Virus record (IMG/VR): IMGVR_UViG_3300033177_000258
DNA length: 64,000 bases
Reading direction: 5' to 3' (one strand)
DNA from: a virus
Taxonomy: Duplodnaviria > Caudoviricetes
Below the pieces are notes generated by a model, which was not told the DNA's origin, ran no database searches, and worked only from the letters and a program-made list of their open reading frames with translations. How positions within the stretch are numbered: the stretch's first letter is position 1; the number at the start of each line of letters is the position of its first letter. A program made the translations under genes and the position numbers. Shown piece by piece: positions 14,341 through 36,400 of this stretch.

Positions 14341-15333
14341 ATGGCGCATACTTTGTGGGTCAACCCCGCCATACTGGCTCTCCTCGGGGAGAACACTGAC
14401 GCCCTGAAGGTATTGGCGGATTGGTTCATCATCGAGGAGACGTATCCCAACGGCACCGGCCGGCCCACGTACATGGGCCGCGTGGCCGGAGCAAAGAAGA
14501 CCGGCCTCAACCGCCGTCTCTCGGGCGCCAAGATTGTGCTTCAGGTGGAGAGCGATTCCACCTGGGCGACCCTTGACGGCAACAACACCCCGCGCGACCA
14601 GTACGTGTCGCTCAATGACGTTCGGCGACAGTTGGCCGCGCACAGCATCACCATCGAATTGCCCGAGAGCAAAGCCCCGGTTCGCAAGCTGGACGACGAG
14701 GCCCAGGCGGAGGAGCCTTCCACCGAGCCGCCCCAAGAAGACACTGGGGAGGCCATGGACGACAGCTTCAGGCGCCTGCTCCCCAGCATCACCGAGCACA
14801 CCCTGGTGCTGAGTCTCATTGACGCCATCCAGGACCGCAAAGAGAATCTCTTCGCTCAGCAGCGGATAGCCAAGTATTTCCAGGACTTCCCGGAGCTCAA
14901 CATCGCTCCCGACGAGACGCTGGTCGCGGCATTGATGATTAACGAGCTCACGACCTACCGGCTGCAGCGCGACGTGGCGCAGGGCAAGGATGTCAACCCC
15001 AACCAGATTGCCAAGGCCCAGGAGAACTGGATGAGCGCGGCCATGGCGCTGGGCGTGACCCGCACACAGCGGCTCAAGCAGGGCGACACGCTTGGCTCCT
15101 CTATCGCCGACCTGGCGGCGCAGTATGACGAGCTGCAGCGCCAGGCGCTGAGACAGTTCGAGCGCGACATCGAGGAAGAGAAGCCCATCATCGAGCGGGC
15201 CCGCGAGCGCCAGCAGCGCGAGCTCTCGCCGGGCACGGCGGAAGCGGTCCTGGAAGCCGAGTTCGGTATCCGTGCCGACATTCAGCGTAACGAGTTCGCT
15301 GTGACGGAGGAAGAAGCTGATGCCCCGTCTTAG
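14341..15333 (+). CDS. putative terminase small subunit / packaging-associated protein
   Basis: Directly upstream of and overlapping TerL; helical C-terminal half; call is positional. Confidence 0.45.
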   Translation: MAHTLWVNPAILALLGENTDALKVLADWFIIEETYPNGTGRPTYMGRVAGAKKTGLNRRLSGAKIVLQVESDSTWATLDGNNTPRDQYVSLNDVRRQLAAHSITIELPESKAPVRKLDDEAQAEEPSTEPPQEDTGEAMDDSFRRLLPSITEHTLVLSLIDAIQDRKENLFAQQRIAKYFQDFPELNIAPDETLVAALMINELTTYRLQRDVAQGKDVNPNQIAKAQENWMSAAMALGVTRTQRLKQGDTLGSSIADLAAQYDELQRQALRQFERDIEEEKPIIERARERQQRELSPGTAEAVLEAEFGIRADIQRNEFAVTEEEADAPS

Positions 15334-17005
15334 CCCACTCACCAAGAACGACATTGCTCTGCTGAGGCTGTTCAGAAGCGACCCCGTATTCGCCGGCACC
15401 ATTCTCATCGGCGATGAGTACATGCCGCACCAGCGGTTCTTCTACCGGGACTCGTGGAACAAGACGTTCATCATGAACGCGCGTGGTCGTGGTACCACCA
15501 AGACGTTCGACCTCAGCCGCATGGCCATCCTGGAAGCCATCCTGTACTCGGGCTGGAAGGTCGGCATCGTCGGCCCGTCGTTCCGTCAGGCCAAGTTCGT
15601 CTTCGCCGAAATCGAGCGTGCCATTAACAAGAGCCCGTTCCTGCAGCGCTGCACGATGAGAAACGGCGGCCCATCGAACCTGGCTGACCAGTCCATCTGG
15701 AAGCTCAGGAACGGCAGCATGGTCTTTGCCCTGCCGCTGGGTGATGGCAACAAGATTCGCGGCGCTCGCGCCAACAGCATCCTCATGGACGAGGCGGCGC
15801 AGATTACGCCAGAGGTCATTGACCTGGTTATCAAGCCGCTGGCGGCCACGGCTGCTGACCCGGCTGCCCAAGTGCGCCTGGCGCGCCTGAAGCGATACGA
15901 AGCCGAAATCCGCGAAGCCGGCATTGACTTCGACCGGCTGTCCCGGAGCAACCGCCTCATCCTGTCGTCTTCTGCCTACTACCAGTTCAATCACTTCTAT
16001 GAGAAGTACAAGCAGTACCTGAGGTACACCGCAGAGTTCCTTGAGGATGGCAGCCACAACCCCGAGTACGACCCGGCCTATGGGCTCTACGTGTTCGACT
16101 ACCGCGACCTGCCTGAAGGGTTCATGTCCGCTTCCGTCATCAATGACGCCATGAAGACGATGGGCGTCATCGAGTTCCTGATGGAGTGGTGCGCCTACTT
16201 CCCTGCCGACAGCGACGGCTTCTTCAACGCCAGCCTCATCCAGCAGTGCGTGAACCCGCAACTGTCCGTGCGCCTGGCCCCGGTCCCTGGCCGGCGCTAT
16301 GTGATGGCTGTTGACCCCGCCCGCACGGGTGACTACTTCGCGATTTCGGTGTTCGAAGAAGTCGAGCCCGGCCTGTGGGCCATGGTCTACTGCTTCGCGG
16401 ACAAAGGGCTCAGCACCCCCGTCATGCGCGACATCATCGGGGGCATCGCCGCCAGGTTCAACGTGGCTCACATCTGCATAGATAGAGGAGGCGGTGGCTT
16501 GGCGCTCGTGGACCTGCTCTGCGAGCCGGGGGACAAGGAAGGCTTCATGCCGCCGCTCTCAAACGTGGTGATTCCCTACGGGCAGTTCGGGCTCTTCGAT
16601 GAGGAGAACCCCGGCGACCCCAAGAACATCCTGGACCCGGTGGCGCAAAGCACCGAAGTCAACAAAGAGCTCTACATGGGCCTGAAGAGCGGCCTGGAAA
16701 CTAAGCGCATCCAGTTCGCGGGCAAGGTTGACCCGTTCGTCACCGGGGGCCCTCTACTCGAAGCGGCCGAGCAAGCTCAGGACCACATCATGGCCGCCCA
16801 GCGCGAACTTCGCGCTATCCAGATGAGCGCCAACAACAACGGCACCCTGCATTTCGACACACCGGGCAACCAGCCCAAAGACCGCGCGATAGTGACCTGT
16901 CTGGGGAACTACGCTGCGAAGCGCGTAACTCTGCAAACCACGAGCGAAGGCGACCCCTTGCCGGGTGGCTCAGTCAGTACGGGCGTATTCGGCCAGCGTC
17001 GCTAG
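15320..17005 (+). CDS. terL: terminase large subunit
   Basis: ARGRGTTKT, PSFRQAK, LPLGDGNKIRGARAN, LMDEA (Walker B), RNase H AVDPA..D, IDRGGGG, KDR. Confidence 0.92.
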   Translation: MPRLSPLTKNDIALLRLFRSDPVFAGTILIGDEYMPHQRFFYRDSWNKTFIMNARGRGTTKTFDLSRMAILEAILYSGWKVGIVGPSFRQAKFVFAEIERAINKSPFLQRCTMRNGGPSNLADQSIWKLRNGSMVFALPLGDGNKIRGARANSILMDEAAQITPEVIDLVIKPLAATAADPAAQVRLARLKRYEAEIREAGIDFDRLSRSNRLILSSSAYYQFNHFYEKYKQYLRYTAEFLEDGSHNPEYDPAYGLYVFDYRDLPEGFMSASVINDAMKTMGVIEFLMEWCAYFPADSDGFFNASLIQQCVNPQLSVRLAPVPGRRYVMAVDPARTGDYFAISVFEEVEPGLWAMVYCFADKGLSTPVMRDIIGGIAARFNVAHICIDRGGGGLALVDLLCEPGDKEGFMPPLSNVVIPYGQFGLFDEENPGDPKNILDPVAQSTEVNKELYMGLKSGLETKRIQFAGKVDPFVTGGPLLEAAEQAQDHIMAAQRELRAIQMSANNNGTLHFDTPGNQPKDRAIVTCLGNYAAKRVTLQTTSEGDPLPGGSVSTGVFGQRR

Positions 17006-17014
17006 GAGTCCTTA

Positions 17015-18610
17015 ATGGCGGAAATCATCACAGCCAAGCAGACCGGCCAGGGGCAATTCAAGATGCTCCTGCGGCAGGACGTTCTCGCCGGCCATCGGGA
17101 GTTGGCGATGGGGGGCCAAGGGACCAATCTCTTTGGCGGCAAAGCGCGCGCCGGGCTCTTCGACACCATCAACACCTCATACTCCGGGGGCGGCACCGAC
17201 GCCACCGGCCTGTTCCAGATTCCAATTTCTTCCACTGGCGGCGACCCGTTCTTGGAGTGGCAGAAGCGCTGCGACTATGTGCTGAAGCTCTACTACTGGG
17301 ATGCCGTCGTGGGCACCAGCATTGACACCCTGTGCGACCTCATCTCTGCCGGTTGCCGCGTCGTGCTTTCCGGCAAGGAAGCTACCAACAAGAAGCGCAG
17401 CAGCGGCAATGTCGCCGACTTCTACAACTGGGTGGAGACCATCGGCCTCAACGACCTGATGCGCTGGTCCATCCGCGACCATACCCTGTTCGGCCGCGCC
17501 GTCCCCATCCGCCTGGGCGAGGTAGACGGCAAGAACAGGTTCTACACCCTGTACAACCCCGCCCACTGCGCCGTGCTCGGCGCCCTCAATGTGCAGTTCG
17601 ATGACATGCTTCAGCCCGCACAGGACACCAGCAACATCATCAAGGTGGGCGTGCCGGCCGACGTTCTCAAGCCACAGAACCTCACCTACATGGGCCTGCA
17701 GAACGAGAGCGAGTACAAGCCACCGCCGTGGATGAAGCCGTTCAGCGTGGGGAGCAAGGACTACTACGTCTTCGACCCCAATGTGGTCAACTTCATTGAC
17801 CGCAAGAAGCAACCCTACTCGCGCTACCCCGTGCCGTTCCTGCTGCGCGCCAGCTTCTCGTACCGCACCAAGCGCATCATGCAGCTCATGGACGAAGCGA
17901 CCGCCGAGGACATGGTGAACTGCATCGTGCTGGTCACGGTGGGCAACGACAAGTACCCGGCGAACGTGAAGCAGATTCGCGAAATCCAGCGCGCGTTCGA
18001 GACGGACAAGCGCAGCTTCACCGTGTACTGGAACCACACGCTCAATGTCCAGATGTTGCGCCCACCGGCCGGTGAGATTCTCGGTCGCGACAAGTACGAG
18101 GCCGTCAACGCCGAGCTCTATGCTGGCATCGGCGTCCCCATGTTCCTCGTTGACGCATCGGCGGGCGGGGGCGGCAGCGGCTACAGCAACCAGTGGGTCC
18201 AGGTCGAAGTCCTGTTGCGGCGCCTGGATGTTGCCCGGCTCGAAGTCAAGGCGTTCTGGGAGCGCGAGCTCAACGCCGTAGCCCAGAAGTTCGGCATCAA
18301 GGAACGCGTCCACATCGTGTTCGACAAGGTGGACCTGCGACCACAGGACCGCTTCAAGGCCATCGTACTCGGTCTCCGGCATTTGGGCCTCATCTCGGGC
18401 CAGACAGCGTTGGAAGAGGCGGGCCACGACCCGGCCACGGAAATCGCCCGTCTTGAGGAAGAGCTTGAGTTCCAGAAGAAGGGTCTCTTCATCTCTCAGC
18501 AGACCCAGACCAAGATGGCGCAGGACCCCGGACGGCCGCCGAGCGGCCCCGGCCAGGACTACCCTCCGGGCCGGCAGCCGACAGGCGACCAACCCACTCC
18601 ACAGGCATAA
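17015..18610 (+). CDS. portal protein
   Basis: 531 aa after TerL; RKKQPYSRYPVPF, GLISGQTALEE..E..R..EE, C-terminal GRP. Confidence 0.8.
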   Translation: MAEIITAKQTGQGQFKMLLRQDVLAGHRELAMGGQGTNLFGGKARAGLFDTINTSYSGGGTDATGLFQIPISSTGGDPFLEWQKRCDYVLKLYYWDAVVGTSIDTLCDLISAGCRVVLSGKEATNKKRSSGNVADFYNWVETIGLNDLMRWSIRDHTLFGRAVPIRLGEVDGKNRFYTLYNPAHCAVLGALNVQFDDMLQPAQDTSNIIKVGVPADVLKPQNLTYMGLQNESEYKPPPWMKPFSVGSKDYYVFDPNVVNFIDRKKQPYSRYPVPFLLRASFSYRTKRIMQLMDEATAEDMVNCIVLVTVGNDKYPANVKQIREIQRAFETDKRSFTVYWNHTLNVQMLRPPAGEILGRDKYEAVNAELYAGIGVPMFLVDASAGGGGSGYSNQWVQVEVLLRRLDVARLEVKAFWERELNAVAQKFGIKERVHIVFDKVDLRPQDRFKAIVLGLRHLGLISGQTALEEAGHDPATEIARLEEELEFQKKGLFISQQTQTKMAQDPGRPPSGPGQDYPPGRQPTGDQPTPQA

Positions 18611-18644
18611 GTGGCCGTTCTTGCCTGACACGACCGAGAAATGA

Positions 18645-18655
18645 CGGAATACTTC
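18645..18655 (+). promoter_or_regulatory. putative late promoter motif (2/9)
   Basis: CGGAATACTTC after the portal stop. Confidence 0.75.
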
Positions 18656-18656
18656 C

Positions 18657-18838
18657 ACTGTGGAGTTTGCACCGGATGCGTCTCCGCCTACGGCGCGCGA
18701 AGTCTCAACGAGATTTCGGGTTGGCCCGTACCATAACGGGATGGTGTCGTATGCACCTTGACACTTGAGCGTATCAGGTTGCGACAGAGAAGCGTCTGTC
18801 GCGCAAAACTCTCAGCGTGTGGGCACAATAAAGCCCAA
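18657..18838 (+). ncRNA. unclassified multi-stem structured RNA
   Basis: Nested long-range stems GAGTTTGC/GCAAAACTC and ACCGGATGCG/CGTATCAGGT plus several local hairpins. Confidence 0.55.
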
Positions 18839-18947
18839 AAGTATCCTGGGGTCAAGCTCCAGGTAGTTCCGGGGGGCGCCCGGCAAGTAGCTCGTGAAAG
18901 CGAGAAGTCGCACAAGCGGCAGCGTCACATGTCTTACGTCCTGCACC
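18839..18947 (+). ncRNA. orphan TnpB omegaRNA scaffold plus ~20-nt guide
   Basis: 18839-18927 is a close copy of 24416-24505 with structure-preserving changes; identity stops at GCGTCA. Confidence 0.8.
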
Positions 18948-18973
18948 GAACTTCTTCCAGAAGAGGTCATTTA

Positions 18974-21547
18974 ATGCCCGAAACACAGCAGCACATCAAA
19001 GTGCTATCGGCACCCATTGACCTGACCCCGGTAGTGGCCGACAACTGGACGCAGCTCTACATGAGTTATGTCCTGTGTCATGCGCTGCCGGCCATTAACG
19101 CCAATAGCGATAGCTGGACCCCGGCCACCCTGGCCAACTCATTCAAGTCCGTCATCCACAGCCCGTTCAACATCGAGCACTGGGACACCGACATCGTGGG
19201 CCACACCTACGACGCCGCCCTCATCGAGCAGGACGGGCAGGTCTTCATCGTCGGCGCCGCCGTCATCTACCGCGACATCTTCTACTGCCTCGCGCACGAC
19301 CTGCAGAACAACGAGGAAGAGGGCAACAACTGGCGCGTCAGCATGGAGTGCTACTTCGATAAGGTGGCGCTCTCCTACAAGGGGCGCACGTACACCGAGA
19401 AGAGTGAACGCTGGAAAGAGCTCTCACCCTACATGGGCGCGCTCTACGACGGCAAGCCCGTCGTGCGGCTCCTCGGTGGTGCGGAGGATGACTCTCGCGT
19501 CTTCTTCAGCGGCGCCGCGCTGGTCAAGGTCCCCGCCGACACGAACGCGCGCATCCTCTCCGTCAAGTACGTTGACAACGATGGCAAGGCCGCCGAGAAG
19601 ACCTACGACGCATCGGTGGCGTCCCGCATCATCCGCGTCTCGCCCGAGCCGGTTGTCTTGTCGCGCGGCAGTCTGGCTACGGCTAGCGATGTCTCCCGTC
19701 GCATCGAAGAGTTGCGCGAGACCGTGGCCGAGCGCCGCGCCGCGAACTCCATTTCCAACATCTGCCCCCTCAGCTACGGGGACTGCGCCATGGCGAAGCC
19801 GAGCGCGGACGGCCTGGCCTGCCTGAACTTCGACCCCGTGTCGGCGACTTGCAGCAACTACGACCCCGGCACCGAACCACTGGATATAACCCCCATCGTG
19901 GATGTCATCGAGCAGCAGAGTTCCGTCAGCCCCGAGCCGGCTGAGGGGTCTGCTTTGTCGGGCTTCGAGAACGACCTGTACAAGCTGCAGGTATCCGAGA
20001 CGGACGCCGGCGTCATTCTCCAAGTCCTCATCAAGAACCCGGACGGCTCCTGGTCCGAGCACGAAAGCAACACCGTCCCACACGACATCGCAGGACAGCG
20101 CATCGAAGAGTGGGTCACGGTACTAGCTGACGGCCTGGACGATGTAGGCGAACTGGTTGGCGAGCTCGATGAAGCGATGGCGGCCGAAGCCGGCATGTTC
20201 ATCATCAGCGACAGCACTGACGCAGCCGTATGGACGCAGAAGTACGTCAACGACCTTCCTGACGCGGCTTTCGCCGGTCTCCTGCCGGGCGGCAAGAAGG
20301 ACGAGGGCGGCAACACTGCTCCCCGCGCCAAGCGGAAGCTCCCCCATCATGATGCTTCGGTCAAGAAGTCCGACGAGAATGGCAGTGTGGGCCTTGCCCC
20401 TCTGCGCAACGCGTTGGCGCGTCTGCCGATGACGCAGTGCCCGAGCAGCATGAAGAAGCGCATGAAGTCGCACCTCGCTGCACACGCTAAGGTGTTGCTC
20501 AAGGGCGATAGTGGCAAAAGTTCTCTGACACAGGCCACAGATACACGGAATACTTCTGACACGAGAGGTGACACGGCAATGCCTATGACCACTGAAGACT
20601 TCAAGCAGATGCTCGACGAGAGCGTCGCCACCGCTATCAAGCCCATCGGCGACAAGCTCGAAACCTTCGCCAGCGGACTCGGCGAGGTCCAGGAAGAGCT
20701 CAAGTCGCGCGGCAGCCAGCTCGACGGACTGCTGACCGCCCAGCGCACCGAGACCCGCCTGGCCCAGCTCGACCCGCTCCCGATTACGGACGATGTGCGC
20801 GCCCTGGCCAACGACATGAGCGACGAGATGTGGGGCAAGTACGTCGCTTCATCCCAGCCGTTCATCCAGGCCGCGAAGGACGCCGCCGCAGCCGCCCAGG
20901 CCGAGACGGAGACCGCCCAGGCCGAGACGGAGACCGCCCAGGCCGAGACTGAGACCCAGACCGAGACGCCCGCCGATGGCGGCGAAGCCCAGGCCCAGGC
21001 CCAGACCGAGACCCAGAACGAGACCCCCGCTGAGGGCGGCGAGGCCCAGGCCGAGACTGAGACCCAGACCGAGACGCCCGCCGATGGCGGCGAAGCCCAG
21101 GCCCAGACCGAGACCCAGACCGAGACCCAGACCGAGACCCCCGCTGAGGGCGGCGAGGCCCAGGCCGAGACTGAGACCCAGACCGAGACGCCCGCCGATG
21201 GCGGCGAAGCCCAGGCCCAGGCCGAGACCCAGACCGAGACCCTCGCTGAGGGTGGCGAGGCCCAGGCCGAGACCGAGACGCAGGACGAGGAAGCCAGCGC
21301 CCAGACCGAAGGTGGCGAAGGCGGCGAGGCTCAGGCCTCCCAGCAGCAGCCACCGGCCGGCGCCCAACTCCCCGTGACCAGCGGCGGCGGCGGCAGCGCG
21401 CAGAGCATGTTCGTCTTCCGTGGCCCTGGCGGCGAGACCGCTGCGGGCGGCTCAGTCGGCGAAGTGTCCGCGAAGGGTAGCTACGAGGCCCTGACCCAGG
21501 GCTACCAGAAGCTGTGGCACGAGCAGCTCAAGTCGTCCGACGAGTAG
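18974..21547 (+). CDS. prohead protease-scaffold fusion (with a DUF6582-like segment)
   Basis: ATG 18974 after AAGAGGT; NIEH..IVGH, VSMECYF, FSGAALV..PA; LPDAAFA..RKLPHHD..LRNALAR; acidic repetitive C-terminus. Confidence 0.75.
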   Translation: MPETQQHIKVLSAPIDLTPVVADNWTQLYMSYVLCHALPAINANSDSWTPATLANSFKSVIHSPFNIEHWDTDIVGHTYDAALIEQDGQVFIVGAAVIYRDIFYCLAHDLQNNEEEGNNWRVSMECYFDKVALSYKGRTYTEKSERWKELSPYMGALYDGKPVVRLLGGAEDDSRVFFSGAALVKVPADTNARILSVKYVDNDGKAAEKTYDASVASRIIRVSPEPVVLSRGSLATASDVSRRIEELRETVAERRAANSISNICPLSYGDCAMAKPSADGLACLNFDPVSATCSNYDPGTEPLDITPIVDVIEQQSSVSPEPAEGSALSGFENDLYKLQVSETDAGVILQVLIKNPDGSWSEHESNTVPHDIAGQRIEEWVTVLADGLDDVGELVGELDEAMAAEAGMFIISDSTDAAVWTQKYVNDLPDAAFAGLLPGGKKDEGGNTAPRAKRKLPHHDASVKKSDENGSVGLAPLRNALARLPMTQCPSSMKKRMKSHLAAHAKVLLKGDSGKSSLTQATDTRNTSDTRGDTAMPMTTEDFKQMLDESVATAIKPIGDKLETFASGLGEVQEELKSRGSQLDGLLTAQRTETRLAQLDPLPITDDVRALANDMSDEMWGKYVASSQPFIQAAKDAAAAAQAETETAQAETETAQAETETQTETPADGGEAQAQAQTETQNETPAEGGEAQAETETQTETPADGGEAQAQTETQTETQTETPAEGGEAQAETETQTETPADGGEAQAQAETQTETLAEGGEAQAETETQDEEASAQTEGGEGGEAQASQQQPPAGAQLPVTSGGGGSAQSMFVFRGPGGETAAGGSVGEVSAKGSYEALTQGYQKLWHEQLKSSDE
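20546..20556 (+). promoter_or_regulatory. putative late promoter motif (3/9), intragenic
   Basis: CGGAATACTTC followed by GAGAGGTG RBS and an in-frame ATG at 20579. Confidence 0.7.
20579..21547 (+). CDS. nested in-frame scaffolding protein (322 aa)
   Basis: Own promoter motif, RBS and ATG inside the protease gene; coiled-coil then acidic repeats. Confidence 0.65.
   Translation: MPMTTEDFKQMLDESVATAIKPIGDKLETFASGLGEVQEELKSRGSQLDGLLTAQRTETRLAQLDPLPITDDVRALANDMSDEMWGKYVASSQPFIQAAKDAAAAAQAETETAQAETETAQAETETQTETPADGGEAQAQAQTETQNETPAEGGEAQAETETQTETPADGGEAQAQTETQTETQTETPAEGGEAQAETETQTETPADGGEAQAQAETQTETLAEGGEAQAETETQDEEASAQTEGGEGGEAQASQQQPPAGAQLPVTSGGGGSAQSMFVFRGPGGETAAGGSVGEVSAKGSYEALTQGYQKLWHEQLKSSDE
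20894..21283 (+). repeat. coding tandem repeats (AQAETET / TETPA[DE]GGEAQA)
   Basis: GCCCAGGCCGAGAC..GAGACCCAGACC units repeated. Confidence 0.9.
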
Positions 21548-21642
21548 TACCTGACCAAGGCAGCAACCAGTCGTTTGACCGATAGACGTTCCCAATACCC
21601 GCCACTTTAGTGGCGGAGCATCCTGAGCACGAGGTGTAACCA

Positions 21643-22200
21643 ATGGCTCGCAAGTTCCAGAGGATTCTTGGTGGGTATGAGGCTCCGTTCTTCAAGACGG
21701 AGAGCGGCTTCATCCCCAACGGTGCCTCCTTGGTGGAAGCGGGTCTGGCCGTCATGTACAAGTCCGGTTCTCCGGTCGCTGACATTGACGAAGCCCAGCC
21801 CATCGTCCTGAGCGACGGTACTTCCGCCATCGGGCTCCTGAACCAGGATGTTACCCCGTCCCGTGCCGCCTCTACCCTCGGGTATGTGGTCGGCTCCAAG
21901 ACGGAAGGTAACTTCCGACGCCGCCTGACGCACGAGGCCGAAGAAGGCGACGTGTGCGCCGTAACCATCGGCCCGGCCCACTGCATCATCCCCGACGAGT
22001 GTTACGTCGGGACCCCGGCCCCCAGCAATCCGCTCTACGTGACGAACGCAGGCAAGCTCACCGCTGCCTACAACGCCACCCCGAGTGCGACCGAAGGCGG
22101 CCTCATGGCGGCGGTCTGTGAGAGCGCCCCCACGGCAGATGGAAACATCCGTATCCTTCTGCTGGGACCCTACGCTACATACTACAGCTACGTGGCCTAA
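21643..22200 (+). CDS. putative capsid decoration/cement protein
   Basis: Between scaffold and major capsid genes; IGLLNQDV..LYVTNAGKLT. Confidence 0.6.
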   Translation: MARKFQRILGGYEAPFFKTESGFIPNGASLVEAGLAVMYKSGSPVADIDEAQPIVLSDGTSAIGLLNQDVTPSRAASTLGYVVGSKTEGNFRRRLTHEAEEGDVCAVTIGPAHCIIPDECYVGTPAPSNPLYVTNAGKLTAAYNATPSATEGGLMAAVCESAPTADGNIRILLLGPYATYYSYVA

Positions 22201-23272: not shown

Positions 23273-23328
23273 TGCCAACCGCTTACAGGTCTGTAACCAT
23301 TGCCAACCGCTTACAGGTCTGTAACCAT
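23273..23328 (+). repeat. perfect 28-bp tandem duplication at tnpB start
   Basis: TGCCAACCGCTTACAGGTCTGTAACCAT x2. Confidence 0.95.
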
Positions 23329-24493
23329 TGACTGGCTCCCCCGCTCGCAGGCCGAGTGGGCTACATTCACGGCTGCCCGCCGTGAAGCTGGCCGACTCTG
23401 GTCCGACTTGGTAGAGCGCCATCTGCGCATCCGTCGCCGCCAACTCAAGTGGCCGTCAGAAAAGCGCTGGCGCAAATGGGCCAAAGGCAAGTACCCCAAT
23501 CTCCATAGCCAGTCCGTGCAACTAATCATATCCGAGTTCTGCGAAGCACTTGCTTCGGCAGCTACCCTGCGCCGCAATGGGCACCCAGAGGCCAACTACC
23601 CACATAAGCCTCGTGAGTTCCATGGGGTCCCGCATACGAACCAGGGCGCGGTGGTGCGGGATGCCAACTTGCGGTTGTCCAATGGTTCTGCCGGCTATCT
23701 CTACATCCCGCTCCCGCGTACCATTGTTCTTCCTGGCCGACTTATGGAGGCCAGACTCACCTATGGTGCAGTAATCTTGGTCTGCCAATGTGAAGCCCAG
23801 ATTACCCCGACCGGCCCCATTCTCGGCATAGACCTCGGCGTCAATACGCTCCTCGCCGCCACAGATGGCCAGACCGCAGTTCTCGTCTCGGGTCGCGAAG
23901 CAAAAGCCACAGTCCAATGGCGCGCTAAGCGTCTGGCGTCTCTCCGCAGTAAGCAGTCCAACTGTCACCGGGGCTCCCGTCAGTATGGCCGGCTCCAGCG
24001 CCGCAAGCATAAGCTGCTGAAGAAGTCTGAGAACCGAGTCAAAGACCTCACTCACAAGGCTACGCGCACGATTGCGGACGCGTTCCCAGGAGCTAAGTGT
24101 TACGTCGGCGAGCCGTTCAATGACGCCGCTCAGAAGCTCGGCAGACGCCAGGCTCAACAGGTTTCAGAAGCCTGCAATTCTCGCATTATTACGCAACTCG
24201 ACTACAAGACGGCCGGTGCCATTACGGTAGGCGAGGCGTATAGTTCCCAAACGTGTCCCGTTTGCGGAACTCGGAACAAGTGTCGGCGAACCTACCGCTG
24301 TTGTGACTGCGGCTTTACTGCCCATCGTGACGTGGTGGGTTCCGCCAACATCCGCTGCATCGGGATGCGCGGCGAGCTTGTTCCAGGCTGTGACGTGCCT
24401 AACGTCTGGACCTACAAGTATCCTGGGGTCATCGCTCCAGGTAGTTCCGGGGGACGCCCGGCATGTAGCTCGCGCAAGCGAGAAGCCGCTTAG
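23300..24493 (+). CDS. tnpB: TnpB RNA-guided endonuclease (IS200/IS605 family)
   Basis: RuvC-I GIDLG, RuvC-II YVGEP, SSQTCPVCG..CCDCG zinc ribbon, RuvC-III HRDVVGSANI; original ATG 23272 is out of frame because of the duplication. Confidence 0.92.
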   Translation: MPTAYRSVTIDWLPRSQAEWATFTAARREAGRLWSDLVERHLRIRRRQLKWPSEKRWRKWAKGKYPNLHSQSVQLIISEFCEALASAATLRRNGHPEANYPHKPREFHGVPHTNQGAVVRDANLRLSNGSAGYLYIPLPRTIVLPGRLMEARLTYGAVILVCQCEAQITPTGPILGIDLGVNTLLAATDGQTAVLVSGREAKATVQWRAKRLASLRSKQSNCHRGSRQYGRLQRRKHKLLKKSENRVKDLTHKATRTIADAFPGAKCYVGEPFNDAAQKLGRRQAQQVSEACNSRIITQLDYKTAGAITVGEAYSSQTCPVCGTRNKCRRTYRCCDCGFTAHRDVVGSANIRCIGMRGELVPGCDVPNVWTYKYPGVIAPGSSGGRPACSSRKREAA

Positions 24494-24526
24494 GCGGTAG
24501 CGTCAAGACGCCCCCGCTTCTCTATC
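24416..24526 (+). ncRNA. omegaRNA overlapping tnpB 3' end plus 21-nt guide/flank
   Basis: Hairpins CCTGGGG/CTCCAGG, CTCGC-GCAA-GCGAG, GCCGC-TTAG-GCGGT; loop GACGC can pair with terminal GCGTC. Confidence 0.8.
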
Positions 24527-30222: not shown

Positions 30223-30434
30223 CTATCTGGAAATGGTGTATGGCAAGGCACCCCCTGGTGGGGTAACGGCTATCAAACCCATTTGTTACGCCGCTTCCTT
30301 CGCTGACGGAATCTACCGTCAGGGCTACTCGCGGTCTAGCCATACGTACCGGCGCACAGCCAGGTACGAGCTGGTTCCATACAGCGGGCCGCCTCTGCCT
30401 CTGTGCTTCATTCTCGGAAGGCTTTTCCTTCCAA
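30223..30434 (+). ncRNA. structured leader / unclassified RNA
   Basis: GTATGGC-A-AGGC/GTCT-A-GCCATAC long-range stem; hairpins CTGACGG/CCGTCAG, CGTACC/GGTACG, GCTG/CAGC, GGAAGG/CCTTCC. Confidence 0.5.
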
Positions 30435-30447
30435 GAGGTCACGGTTG

Positions 30448-33400: not shown

Positions 33401-36400
33401 AGTACCTCGGAGCGCTCGGCGTGGGAGGTGGCGTCACCAACGCGGCCGCCCAACACCTGTCTCAGCTCTCGGGGATGCCTTTGCAAGACGTGATGAAGGA
33501 CGAGATGGGCGCCCTCACCAAGGCGTATGGCCTCTCGTCTGCCAAGCAGTTCATAACCCTAGACGACTTCATTTCCCAGTGGGCAGATGCTACCGGCCGC
33601 AGATACCGACCAGGCGGGGCTGGCATGCAGGAATTGCATGCTATGTCTGCCGGTCTCCACTCGGCCAAGGCTACAGGCGAACTGCCGCCCTGGGTTGTGG
33701 ATGATGCAAGTGTGCTGGCCCAAAGACACGGCGCGTGGCCAGCCGGCCAAATCACTGGAGAAGGTGGTTCCCTGATGAATGCCATCAATGAACACTACCC
33801 AGGAGAGTTCTCTTCTGGGGCGGGAGTGGGCATTGGCTCAGTTCCCGGAACCGTAGGTATCGGCTCGGGTGGTGCTTTCACCCTCGATGCCCTCATTGGG
33901 CCCATCAACCACCTGTCCCAGGCTATCGCCAGCCTGAGCCAGCAGATTGGCACCCTCACCGAGCGTGGTGGAAGCGCCGCCACCCCGCAGGTAGAACGTG
34001 GAAGCGTACAGTCGGTTGGAATTGCCCCGCCCACTCAGACGGGCGGCGGAGGCAGCGGAGGCGGCGGAGGTCAAACACCTCCTCCCGATGGCCGGGTTCG
34101 TCCCATCGCCCCCATGGGGGGCGGCAATAACGGCGGCGGCAACGGTGGCAGCGGTGACAACCCCCCACCGCCCGAAGATGGCGATTTCAAGCAGAGGGTC
34201 TGGGCATACGAAGAGAGCTTCAGGCTACAGCGTGAGCTGCAGAAGCAGTTTGACGCCCAGGCTGTGGGGGCCTTCCCGAAACTGGGTTCGGAGGATGTGT
34301 CGAGTGCTAGAAGGCAGTATGCCCAGAGCGTGGGGTACGGCCGCTTCGGGCGCCAGTACCAGGTTGGCTCGGAAGAAGCCAGCATCGGGCTAGAGTTCCG
34401 TCCCGACACCGAAGGCAATCTGCAGCGCGTCATTCGCGGCAACGCGAACGCCGCCAACATGGAGCAGGCCAGGGCGCAAGCCGAAGTGTACGCCAAGGAA
34501 TTGTTCAGCAACTACCACCCGTCTCGACCGGGTATGACCGCCGACGAAATCCGCGCCGAGCGCGCGGGCCACGCTCTTGATTACGGGTTCCTGGGCCAGT
34601 CAGTAGCCTCTGGCAAGGTGGGCCACGGCCTGGCATCAACGGCCGTAGACTACATCGCCACCGGCTCTGGAGTTCAGGTTGTGCCGCGCACTCCGTCCGG
34701 GATGATGCCGGTCAACCGGACTGACCTGCCGGGCGTCCTCCGGGCACTCGAAGCGGCAGAGAACGAGAAGATGCGGGAGAAGGCCCGCGAGAAGTTGGGC
34801 GCCAATGCTAGTGAAGCAGACATCGCCCGCGACATGCGCCGCGCACAATTGGAACGAGTTGGCGAGAACATCCGCCCCATCAATGTCGTGGACTCCTACG
34901 GGAACATGAACCGGCGCATGCTGCGCTGGGGAATCTCCGCCGACCCCAATGGGAGGGTCTCGCCCCATCTGCAGGATGTCGCTCCAGAAGGCAAGGTCTT
35001 CCGCTCATTCGATGAGGTTGCCACACACGCCCGCAACCTGAGCGCCGTGTTTGACGAGCTGGCCCGAGACGCTCGCGGCGCCGGCAACGCCATGACTGAT
35101 GAGGGCGCGTTCTACGGTGAAGTCGGCCGCGAGAAGATGCGGGTCGCGGGCCAAGAGGTTGGCGTGCGCTTCCTCCGCACTGCTGGCGGCGAAGTCATCG
35201 CGTCTCCAGAAATGGGACGCTCCATCCAGGCACTGCCCACACCCCAGGCACACGCTGAGGTCCAGAACCTGCTCAGGATGAGGGCCCAGGAAATCGAGAA
35301 GAGCCTGGACGCTCTCTCACAGGTTCCTGGCATCGGTAACCTGCGCAGCATGGGGCGTGTCTACGACAAGGTTCCGGTCCAGTGGACCAGCCCTGGCGGG
35401 CACACTCTCCTCGAACAGCAGTACAGCATGACGCAGACGGCTCGCGGCGTCAAGGCCATCCCTGAGCAGGGGCAGCTCGGCTTCGCTCGTGTGGGCGGAG
35501 ACATCACCAACGCCATCGAGAAGGTTGGTCTGTGGGCGGTAGCCACCGGCGCCGTCTACAACTTCATGGCGGCGGTTCGTGGCGCCTACAGCCTCATGAC
35601 CAAGTTCGAAGAAGAGCTGGCCACCAGCCGCGTTCTGCAGCCCGGCTACAGCGACCTGGGGCGCGTGCGCAAAGAGTTCATCGGCATCGCCAATGACTAC
35701 GGCCAGTCTCTGACCAACGTTACCCAGGCGGCTCACCTCTGGGAGCGCCAGTACAAGAACGTCTACCAGGTCCTGGAACTCACCCGCGAGAGCATCAAGC
35801 TCTCCAAGGTGGACAACATTGACTTGGCCCAGGCTAACAAGTACCTCGAAGCCACCATTAACGAAATGGGCTTCGCGGCATCTGATGTTGGCCGCATCGT
35901 TGATAGCTGGACCAACGTCACCAACAACGCCCAGGTTACGATGGAAGACCTGGCTGAGGGTGTGGCTCGGGCCGGCGCCTCGGCCAAGATGGCCGGCGTT
36001 GACTTCGACACGCTCAACGGTCTTATCGCTGGCGGCGTGCGCGCCACTGGCGCCGCTGGTTCCGAAATCGGGAACATGCTCAAGACCGTGTTCGCGAAGA
36101 TGTACACGACGGACGCGGCTCGTGAGCTCAACCAGATTGGTGTCGCCACTCATGAAGTCGTCAACGGCGTGCGAGAGTTGCGCCCGGCGCAGGAAATCTT
36201 GGGCGACCTGGCTAGCAAGTGGGGCACGCTCACCCGAGCTCAGCAGGAATCCATCGCCCTGGGTATGGCTGGTGGCGTAAGGCAGGTCAACCGCCTCTCC
36301 GCCGTTCTGGGCGACTACCGCACGGTTTTGGATGCTGCAGCCAGAAGCTCCGAGGGCTTCGGGGCTGCCAACCGAGAGGTAGGCATCCGAATGGACACCT

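Follow-up and report, generated by a model that had tools for sequence, protein, structure and literature searches.

The window analysed here, a stretch of 64,000 nt, is part of a large uncultured phage. A large terminase gene (15320–17005; PHROG 2, Terminase_6C) is followed by a gene at 17015–18610 that returned no Pfam or PHROG match, the product of which is a portal-type protein by its protein-atlas features (0.98) and predicted structure (TM 0.76), and then by the gene for an 857-aa head protein. A phmmer search of PDB sequences gave no match for either the portal or the head protein. An earlier note on this locus had named these neighbours as portal and protease; the first label holds, and the second is only plausible because the leads to prohead proteases are weak. 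The head gene starts at ATG 18974, where its N-terminus aligns with that of the L004 homologue from a related phage, and this start is preceded by an AAGAGGU ribosome-binding site that a hairpin, CUUCU/AGAAG (18953–18976, + strand), overlaps. The gap between the portal and head genes is thus 18611–18973, or 363 nt. A small ORF from ATG 18641, with an in-frame TTG at 18758, was ruled out at both starts because the L004 start aligns at 18974 and ATG 18641 lies inside the promoter motif; translation from 18758, which by the earlier note would have counted against an RNA, is rejected on the same alignment. No tRNA or tmRNA genes were found.

Near the beginning of the gap is a promoter region (18625–18655, + strand), in which the motif CGGAATACTTC (18645–18655) overlaps a sigma70-like CTGACA-17-AATACT. 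The motif is present in 10 copies on the + strand of the window, compared to 0.44 expected. Given this overlap, a transcript would begin at about 18660, at the foot of helix P1, and the earlier placing of a 180-nt RNA immediately after the promoter motif agrees with that position. Leaders after the other motif copies are mostly shorter than 70 nt. A second long leader after a motif copy lies at 30223–30447 (z −2.87), and has no significant similarity to 18657–18838.

Insertion and fold of the 180-nt stretch

Portal homologues that are 69%, 59%, 51% and 32% identical occur in four related lineages, all of which have the same order of portal and head genes and lack the 180-nt element. The portal-to-head-gene gap is 77, 65 and 53 nt in three of these lineages, while in the fourth the two genes overlap; the element is absent from L004, L005/L006, an ENA contig and L007–L009, so that its presence is polymorphic among related phages. 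The promoter motif and a following NNGTGG are kept in both L004 (motif, ATCGTGG, about 25 nt, ATG) and L005 (motif, GGTGG, about 20 nt, ATG), whereas in the window the motif and ACTGTGG are followed by about 270 extra nt before the ribosome-binding site is reached. Judging from these gap lengths, we conclude that some 265–270 nt have been inserted after the promoter motif, at about 18664–18927. An identical portal is encoded by nine contigs of the phage and the gap is identical throughout the three that were read; the insert is fixed in this phage and the window sequence itself therefore offers no covariation. The sole difference between the window and one strain (an ENA contig, L013) is one of length, towards the 3′ end of the 857-aa gene from 21107 onward (819 compared to 857 aa). 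The most distant relative (L007:1264–4995) has a terminase gene with an intein that carries a LAGLIDADG endonuclease domain.

All helices named in the earlier note occur in the sequence and in the minimum free energy (MFE) fold of 18657–18838. P1 (18663–18670/18803–18811) and P2 (18671–18680/18770–18779) enclose a multibranch structure, and the hairpins are CGCC/GGCG (18685–18688/18692–18695), GAAGUCUC/GAGAUUUC (18699–18706/18710–18717), CCCGU/ACGGG (18725–18729/18736–18740), one at 18744–18748/18760–18764, GCGACAGA/TCTGTCGC (18781–18788/18795–18802) and GGGC/GCCC (18821–18824/18833–18836). The MFE is −77.5 kcal/mol, compared to −59.8 ± 4.5 for 200 dinucleotide shuffles, none of which folds as well (z −3.91), and the pair probability of P1/P2 is approximately 0.88. 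After regression on GC content the residual is −20 kcal/mol, as extreme as in only 3 of 1,419 windows of 182 nt, which ranks the stretch about fourth and in the top 0.3%. The most fold-prone 182-nt windows after GC correction include 181–362 (z −3.4) and 33751–33932 (z −3.1). The reverse complement of 18657–18838 folds about equally well (−72.3 kcal/mol, z −4.6); energy alone therefore chooses no strand and proves no RNA.

Searches with the 180 nt themselves returned little. No Rfam family matched the window at gathering score, and at E up to 10 the region 18400–19200 gave only two unrelated chance matches, with no group I intron or IStron and no Rfam ribozyme or intron family. The proposal in the earlier note that the stretch is a packaging or assembly RNA finds no support, given the missing Rfam match (phi29 pRNA included), the conventional large terminase of the phage and the four related lineages that do without the element. 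BLAST of the gap found no match in the phage collection and no second copy in the window, and five exact or degenerate patterns taken from the 180 nt gave, in viral contigs, three chance 19-mer matches without flanking similarity. BLAST of the 180 nt against 401 Chloroflexota genomes (a sample that includes one unpublished genome, G275, on which no claim rests) produced only chance-level matches of about 20 nt, and there was no match in 17 genomes from the order of G001, hence no second copy of 18657–18838 in 418 Chloroflexota genomes. A single-sequence model, R2, found only itself in approximately 690 kb of related loci and 151 genomes from the class of G001. Local alignments of the 180 nt to the omegaRNA core, the tnpB 3′ end, the region upstream of tnpB-1 and the second long leader were all within the shuffle range. 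Only one copy of the insert was found.

A gene-less omegaRNA core and its conserved leader

Immediately downstream of the 180 nt is a gene-less omegaRNA core (18839–18927, + strand), with four stems, a pseudoknot that pairs the loop GGCGC with the terminal GCGUC, and GCGUCA as its last letters. Positions 18839–18907 are 91% identical to the 3′ end of tnpB-1 (24416–24485), and another tnpB of this phage, located beyond the window, is 88% identical to 18839–18928 over the matching part. We gathered the family from viral, genomic and metagenomic collections with a pattern on its invariant positions (AAGUAUCC...GGUAGUUC...GUnGCUC...GAGAAG...UCA); the alignment of 53 distinct cores (A1) contains clear compensatory changes, including those of the pseudoknot that joins the second-stem loop to the terminal xxUCA. 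A covariance model built from these 53 members (R1) matches exactly two sites in the window, the tnpB-1 core at 24416–24505 (66.7 bits) and 18839–18927 (60.7 bits, E 1.3e-13). It has no match inside 18657–18838 at E up to 10, by which the 180-nt stretch is ruled out as a second omegaRNA core. A weak R1 match (16 bits, E 0.02) at 21632–21709, at the start of the gene at 21643, is probably due to chance.

The guide-position flank of this orphan omegaRNA (18928–18947, + strand) matches only its own flank in the collections searched, as expected for a transposon-derived guide. The likely partner nuclease of the orphan guide RNA is tnpB-1 (23300–24505 on the + strand, including its own omegaRNA core; Pfam OrfB_IS605 and Cas12f1-like_TNB), the coding part of which is 23300–24493. 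Two more tnpB genes of the same phage lie outside the window (L020:637–1743 and L020:3001–4026), the second being N-terminally short (341 aa) with the same omegaRNA core and a different guide. Yet another occupies 63632–64000 and runs off the window; a copy of the promoter motif ends 5 nt before its ATG at 63648 (MKTTLKLKLLPSADQHQALVH...), and its N-terminus resembles that of the 368-aa TnpB of L020. The phage thus carries at least four tnpB genes, several of them behind the phage's own promoter motif. The motif, written GGAATACTT (18645–18655), also approximates the reverse complement of the invariant omegaRNA start AAGTATCC (18839–18846), and L020 has GGGATACTTC upstream of a tnpB; this complementarity may be a coincidence arising from likeness to a −10 box.

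An omegaRNA-type hairpin is present at the right end of the insert, as in the gene-less PATE elements. At its left edge there is no subterminal hairpin and no TTAC, and the left-end hairpin of the family type (TTAC, then AAAGCCCC..TTCAG..GGGGATGAA, as defined from L113/L117 and others) was not seen in the insert. A decayed tnpB coding remnant finds no support in the leader, since tblastn with three TnpB proteins matches the core region only, and an nhmmer profile of the tnpB 3′ coding region matches neither the window nor the gene-less loci described next.

Many members of the omegaRNA family stand without a tnpB. At six of these gene-less loci, which we call class Z (L080:74–343, L072:7425–7694, L122:5740–6009, L128:2051–2320, L143:1529–1678 and L142), approximately 250 nt upstream of the core are conserved and non-coding, and RNAalifold predicts covarying hairpins there. 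In class Z a sigma70-like promoter (TTGnnn-17/18-TATACT) lies some 140 nt 5′ of the core and a hairpin like the family left end some 245 nt 5′ of it, and the guides all differ; RNAalifold pairs the conserved TATACTT of these loci with AAGTATC. We built a covariance model, R3, from the last 150 nt of the six class Z leaders, with the window left out, and searched it over the whole window (128 kb of sequence searched) with filters off. It matches 18712–18846 on the + strand at full model length (37 bits, E 2.9e-7, from a shortened calibration), while the next best match in the window has 10 bits and the tnpB-1 site, which shares the terminal AAGUAUCC, only 7.8 bits. The model also finds gene-less loci on which it was not trained, namely L082 (44 bits) and L031 in a Polyangiaceae metagenome-assembled genome (MAG; 36 bits), with four copies in that one MAG, and a partial copy in L010. 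The L010 copy (L010:1308–1440) is a leader module with an apparently decayed omegaRNA core, closely followed by a complete tnpB element and its left-end hairpin, which suggests elements stacked head to tail.

The leader module of the window (18712–18838, + strand) lies directly 5′ of the core and ends at AAGUAUCC (18839), with the portal gene rather than a tnpB upstream. In the family the order of elements is UUGACA, stem X, UAGGnGGUU, hairpin H, GnAAAA, the other strand of stem X, CGU, a variable hairpin and AAGUAUCC, and in the window it is UUGACA, stem X, AUCAGGUU, hairpin H (18781–18802), GCAAAA, CGU, the variable hairpin (18821–18836) and the core. In the nine-sequence alignment (A6) 89% of cells are paired, compared to 71% when shuffled, and 22 pairs change on both sides, counts that are inflated by the fitting of the alignment to the model structure. 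The covariation score is 0.54, against 0.20 for shuffles (none of 500 reaches it) and 0.05–0.13 for slid controls; in hairpin H every cell is paired (100%) and seven of eight pairs covary. We take the leader signal to be real because of the slid controls and the matches to untrained loci. On the strength of the model match we conclude that 18712–18838, the 3′ two-thirds of the stretch, is homologous to the covarying non-coding leader of gene-less omegaRNA cores elsewhere. The earlier statement that the RNA belongs to no recognised family is correct for Rfam, but not for this unnamed omegaRNA leader family, and one of the earlier suggestions, that it is a 5′ extension of the adjacent omegaRNA, is supported by the R3 match.

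Within this module, the hairpin GCGACAGA/UCUGUCGC corresponds to family hairpin H, GGGC/GCCC to the variable hairpin just before the core, and CCCGU/ACGGG loosely to the tip of family hairpin A. The 3′ strands of P1 and P2 (GCAAAACUC, CGUAUCAGGU) consist of stem X and two conserved blocks, GnAAAA and UAGGnGGUU, while their 5′ strands fall within the first 50 nt or so, which have no relatives. That window-specific 5′ segment (18662–18711, + strand), containing these 5′ strands together with CGCC/GGCG and GAAGUCUC/GAGAUUUC, lies outside the R3 match. Enclosure of a multibranch structure by P1 and P2, as the earlier note proposed, thus applies to the MFE fold but is not a feature of the family and conflicts with conserved stem X. 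Stem X can form in the window (UUGAG/CUCAG), in a family-like fold of −69.5 kcal/mol that is 5.4 kcal/mol less stable than the P1/P2 fold (−74.9) and that arises spontaneously once the 5′ segment is omitted.

In the leader alignment the window row keeps hairpin H completely and 26 of 36 model pairs overall; ten are broken, hairpin B is missing and hairpin A aligns poorly. These broken pairs, the single copy and a first third without relatives would suit a chance structure or a decaying remnant without function, the model match then reflecting the common descent of junk DNA. Such an origin seems very improbable to us, because the fold is among the most stable of the window and the family leader covaries, from which it follows that at least the ancestral module was under selection.

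In members that are linked to a tnpB, a search of the 100 nt ahead of the core for a canonical conserved structure found none, and conservation of structure begins precisely at AAGUAUCC. Farther upstream, about 185 nt from the core, the zinc-finger coding region contains a 10-bp hairpin that 28–30 of 30 sequences retain, and hairpin A of class Z aligns to this hairpin in L129 (25.6 bits). The leader may descend from an omegaRNA 5′ region that once overlapped tnpB, which we offer as a suggestion only because a DNA profile of the coding region misses both class Z and the window. We found no description of a conserved leader module at gene-less loci in the literature that we consulted, which falls short of a full review.

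A different view of the same conservation is that the structure acts as single-stranded DNA, supplying left-end or internal signals for TnpA in peel-and-paste transposition, and that the RNA fold is a by-product. In its favour, the two strands differ little in how well they fold and most stem pairs are Watson-Crick; recognition of IS200/IS605 ends depends on hairpins in the DNA (PMC10055086); one Polyangiaceae MAG contains several copies of the module; and the L010 copy stands upstream of the left end of a tnpB element. However, the family left-end hairpin is elsewhere, about 245 nt upstream of the core in class Z, the module invariably follows a promoter-like site and precedes the omegaRNA core, in the orientation of the omegaRNA, and many of the conserved pairs are G-U on that strand, corresponding to A-C mismatches on the other. 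We regard a role as DNA as unlikely.

Possible roles of the leader

The reading that we favour, and hold to be probable though well short of certain, is that about 18664–18927 is one tnpB-less IS200/IS605-family derivative and that the 180-nt RNA is the 5′ leader of its stand-alone omegaRNA. The insert separates the phage promoter motif from the head gene's ribosome-binding site, and the phage promoter would produce one RNA comprising leader, omegaRNA core, guide and head gene. A TnpB of the phage would bind the core, and the 5′ region might then be trimmed off as in ISDra2, being unnecessary for DNA cutting. In ISDra2, processing removes the 5′ region of the omegaRNA (−231 to −117), and cleavage proceeds without it (PMC10097598). 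Given that this region is dispensable for cleavage, a part for the leader in the stability or folding of the precursor is likelier than one in cutting, and the leader would probably keep the precursor stable and correctly folded until TnpB is bound. PATE elements often encode omegaRNAs for use by TnpB in trans (PMC10055086).

How the 5′ end of the omegaRNA would be generated bears on another possibility raised earlier, that of a self-cleaving or catalytic RNA that releases it. The stretch is directly 5′ of the core, and the leader is conserved and structured at gene-less loci that have no tnpB mRNA as context. Against this, no Rfam ribozyme or intron matches at E up to 10, processing of the 5′ side is reported to be the work of TnpB itself (PMC10097598), and no block resembling an invariant catalytic core was identified; we consider catalysis most improbable.

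The leader could also provide a stable 5′ end for the head-gene mRNA, and its first 50 nt or so, which are phage-specific, would pair as P1/P2 with the conserved leader in place of stem X. A stronger form of this idea is that the phage has co-opted the insert to act in cis on the head-gene mRNA, either by stabilising its 5′ end or by switching between P1/P2 and stem X, in which case omegaRNA ancestry is irrelevant. The structure begins at the inferred transcription start, the phage-specific segment clamps the conserved leader with only 5.4 kcal/mol between the two folds, the long leaders stand out among motif leaders that are mostly below 70 nt, and the insert is fixed among the contigs of the phage. 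Related phages nevertheless express the same gene from only some 30 nt of leader, and the other long leader (30223–30447) is unrelated in sequence, so that we rate co-option for the mRNA as rather unlikely. More speculatively still, the leader could be a working RNA domain of stand-alone omegaRNA genes that is two-state in this phage, with P1/P2 masking stem X, and with TnpB loading or omegaRNA maturation in competition with, or timed relative to, head-gene expression from that one transcript; this is a long shot.

If the favoured reading is right, namely that leader and core form a stand-alone omegaRNA, an apparent orphan RNA is removed and the stretch and the neighbouring omegaRNA become one transposon-derived unit. 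A leader of about 100–150 nt is conserved and covaries at the gene-less omegaRNA loci of this family, which suggests that the 5′ region helps to produce or stabilise the guide RNA where a tnpB mRNA is missing upstream. In this phage, an extra guide RNA would be expressed from the leader of an essential head gene, in addition to its four or more tnpB genes. A spare guide alongside several tnpB genes would fit the idea that phages turn TnpB and spare guides to homing or competition.

Comparison with known systems

The 180-nt stretch resembles phi29 pRNA in size and in its position near head and packaging genes, and differs from it in having no Rfam match, a conventional large terminase beside it and related phages that lack the element. 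IStrons, which combine a group I intron with an IS605 or IS607 element and its omegaRNA (10.1101/2023.11.20.567912), are likewise single transposon-derived units in which a structured RNA precedes the omegaRNA and which interrupt transcribed DNA (transcription being predicted here). The insert has no group I intron signal, however, and is too short for IA2 introns, and a 5′ leader needs no splicing. The 5′ region of the ISDra2 TnpB omegaRNA (−231 to −117; Nakagawa et al. 2023, PMC10097598) is, like the leader, structured and directly 5′ of a pseudoknotted scaffold, and is part of the primary transcript, as is predicted for the leader, upstream of a core of about 100 nt with a 3′ guide. The ISDra2 region overlaps the tnpB coding sequence, whereas the leader of the window is non-coding with no tnpB before it; removal by processing has been demonstrated for ISDra2 only, and the likeness drawn here is one of structure and position.

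PATE-like IS200/IS605 derivatives (Meers et al. 2023, PMC10055086) share with the insert the absence of a gene, an omegaRNA at the right end, a tnpB elsewhere in the genome and a site that is empty in related genomes. Unlike these, the insert has no left-end hairpin or TTAC flank of the family type, is known from one copy only, and occupies, in a phage, the leader of a head gene downstream of a phage promoter motif. The class Z loci (six, plus L082 and L031) have the same order of elements as the window and are linked to it by a significant covariance-model match; they differ in having two further 5′ hairpins (A and B), their own sigma70-like promoter and an upstream hairpin like the left end, while the window has a different 5′ third and P1/P2 in place of stem X in its lowest-energy fold. 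The insert adds to a kind of element already known and does not represent a new class of RNA.
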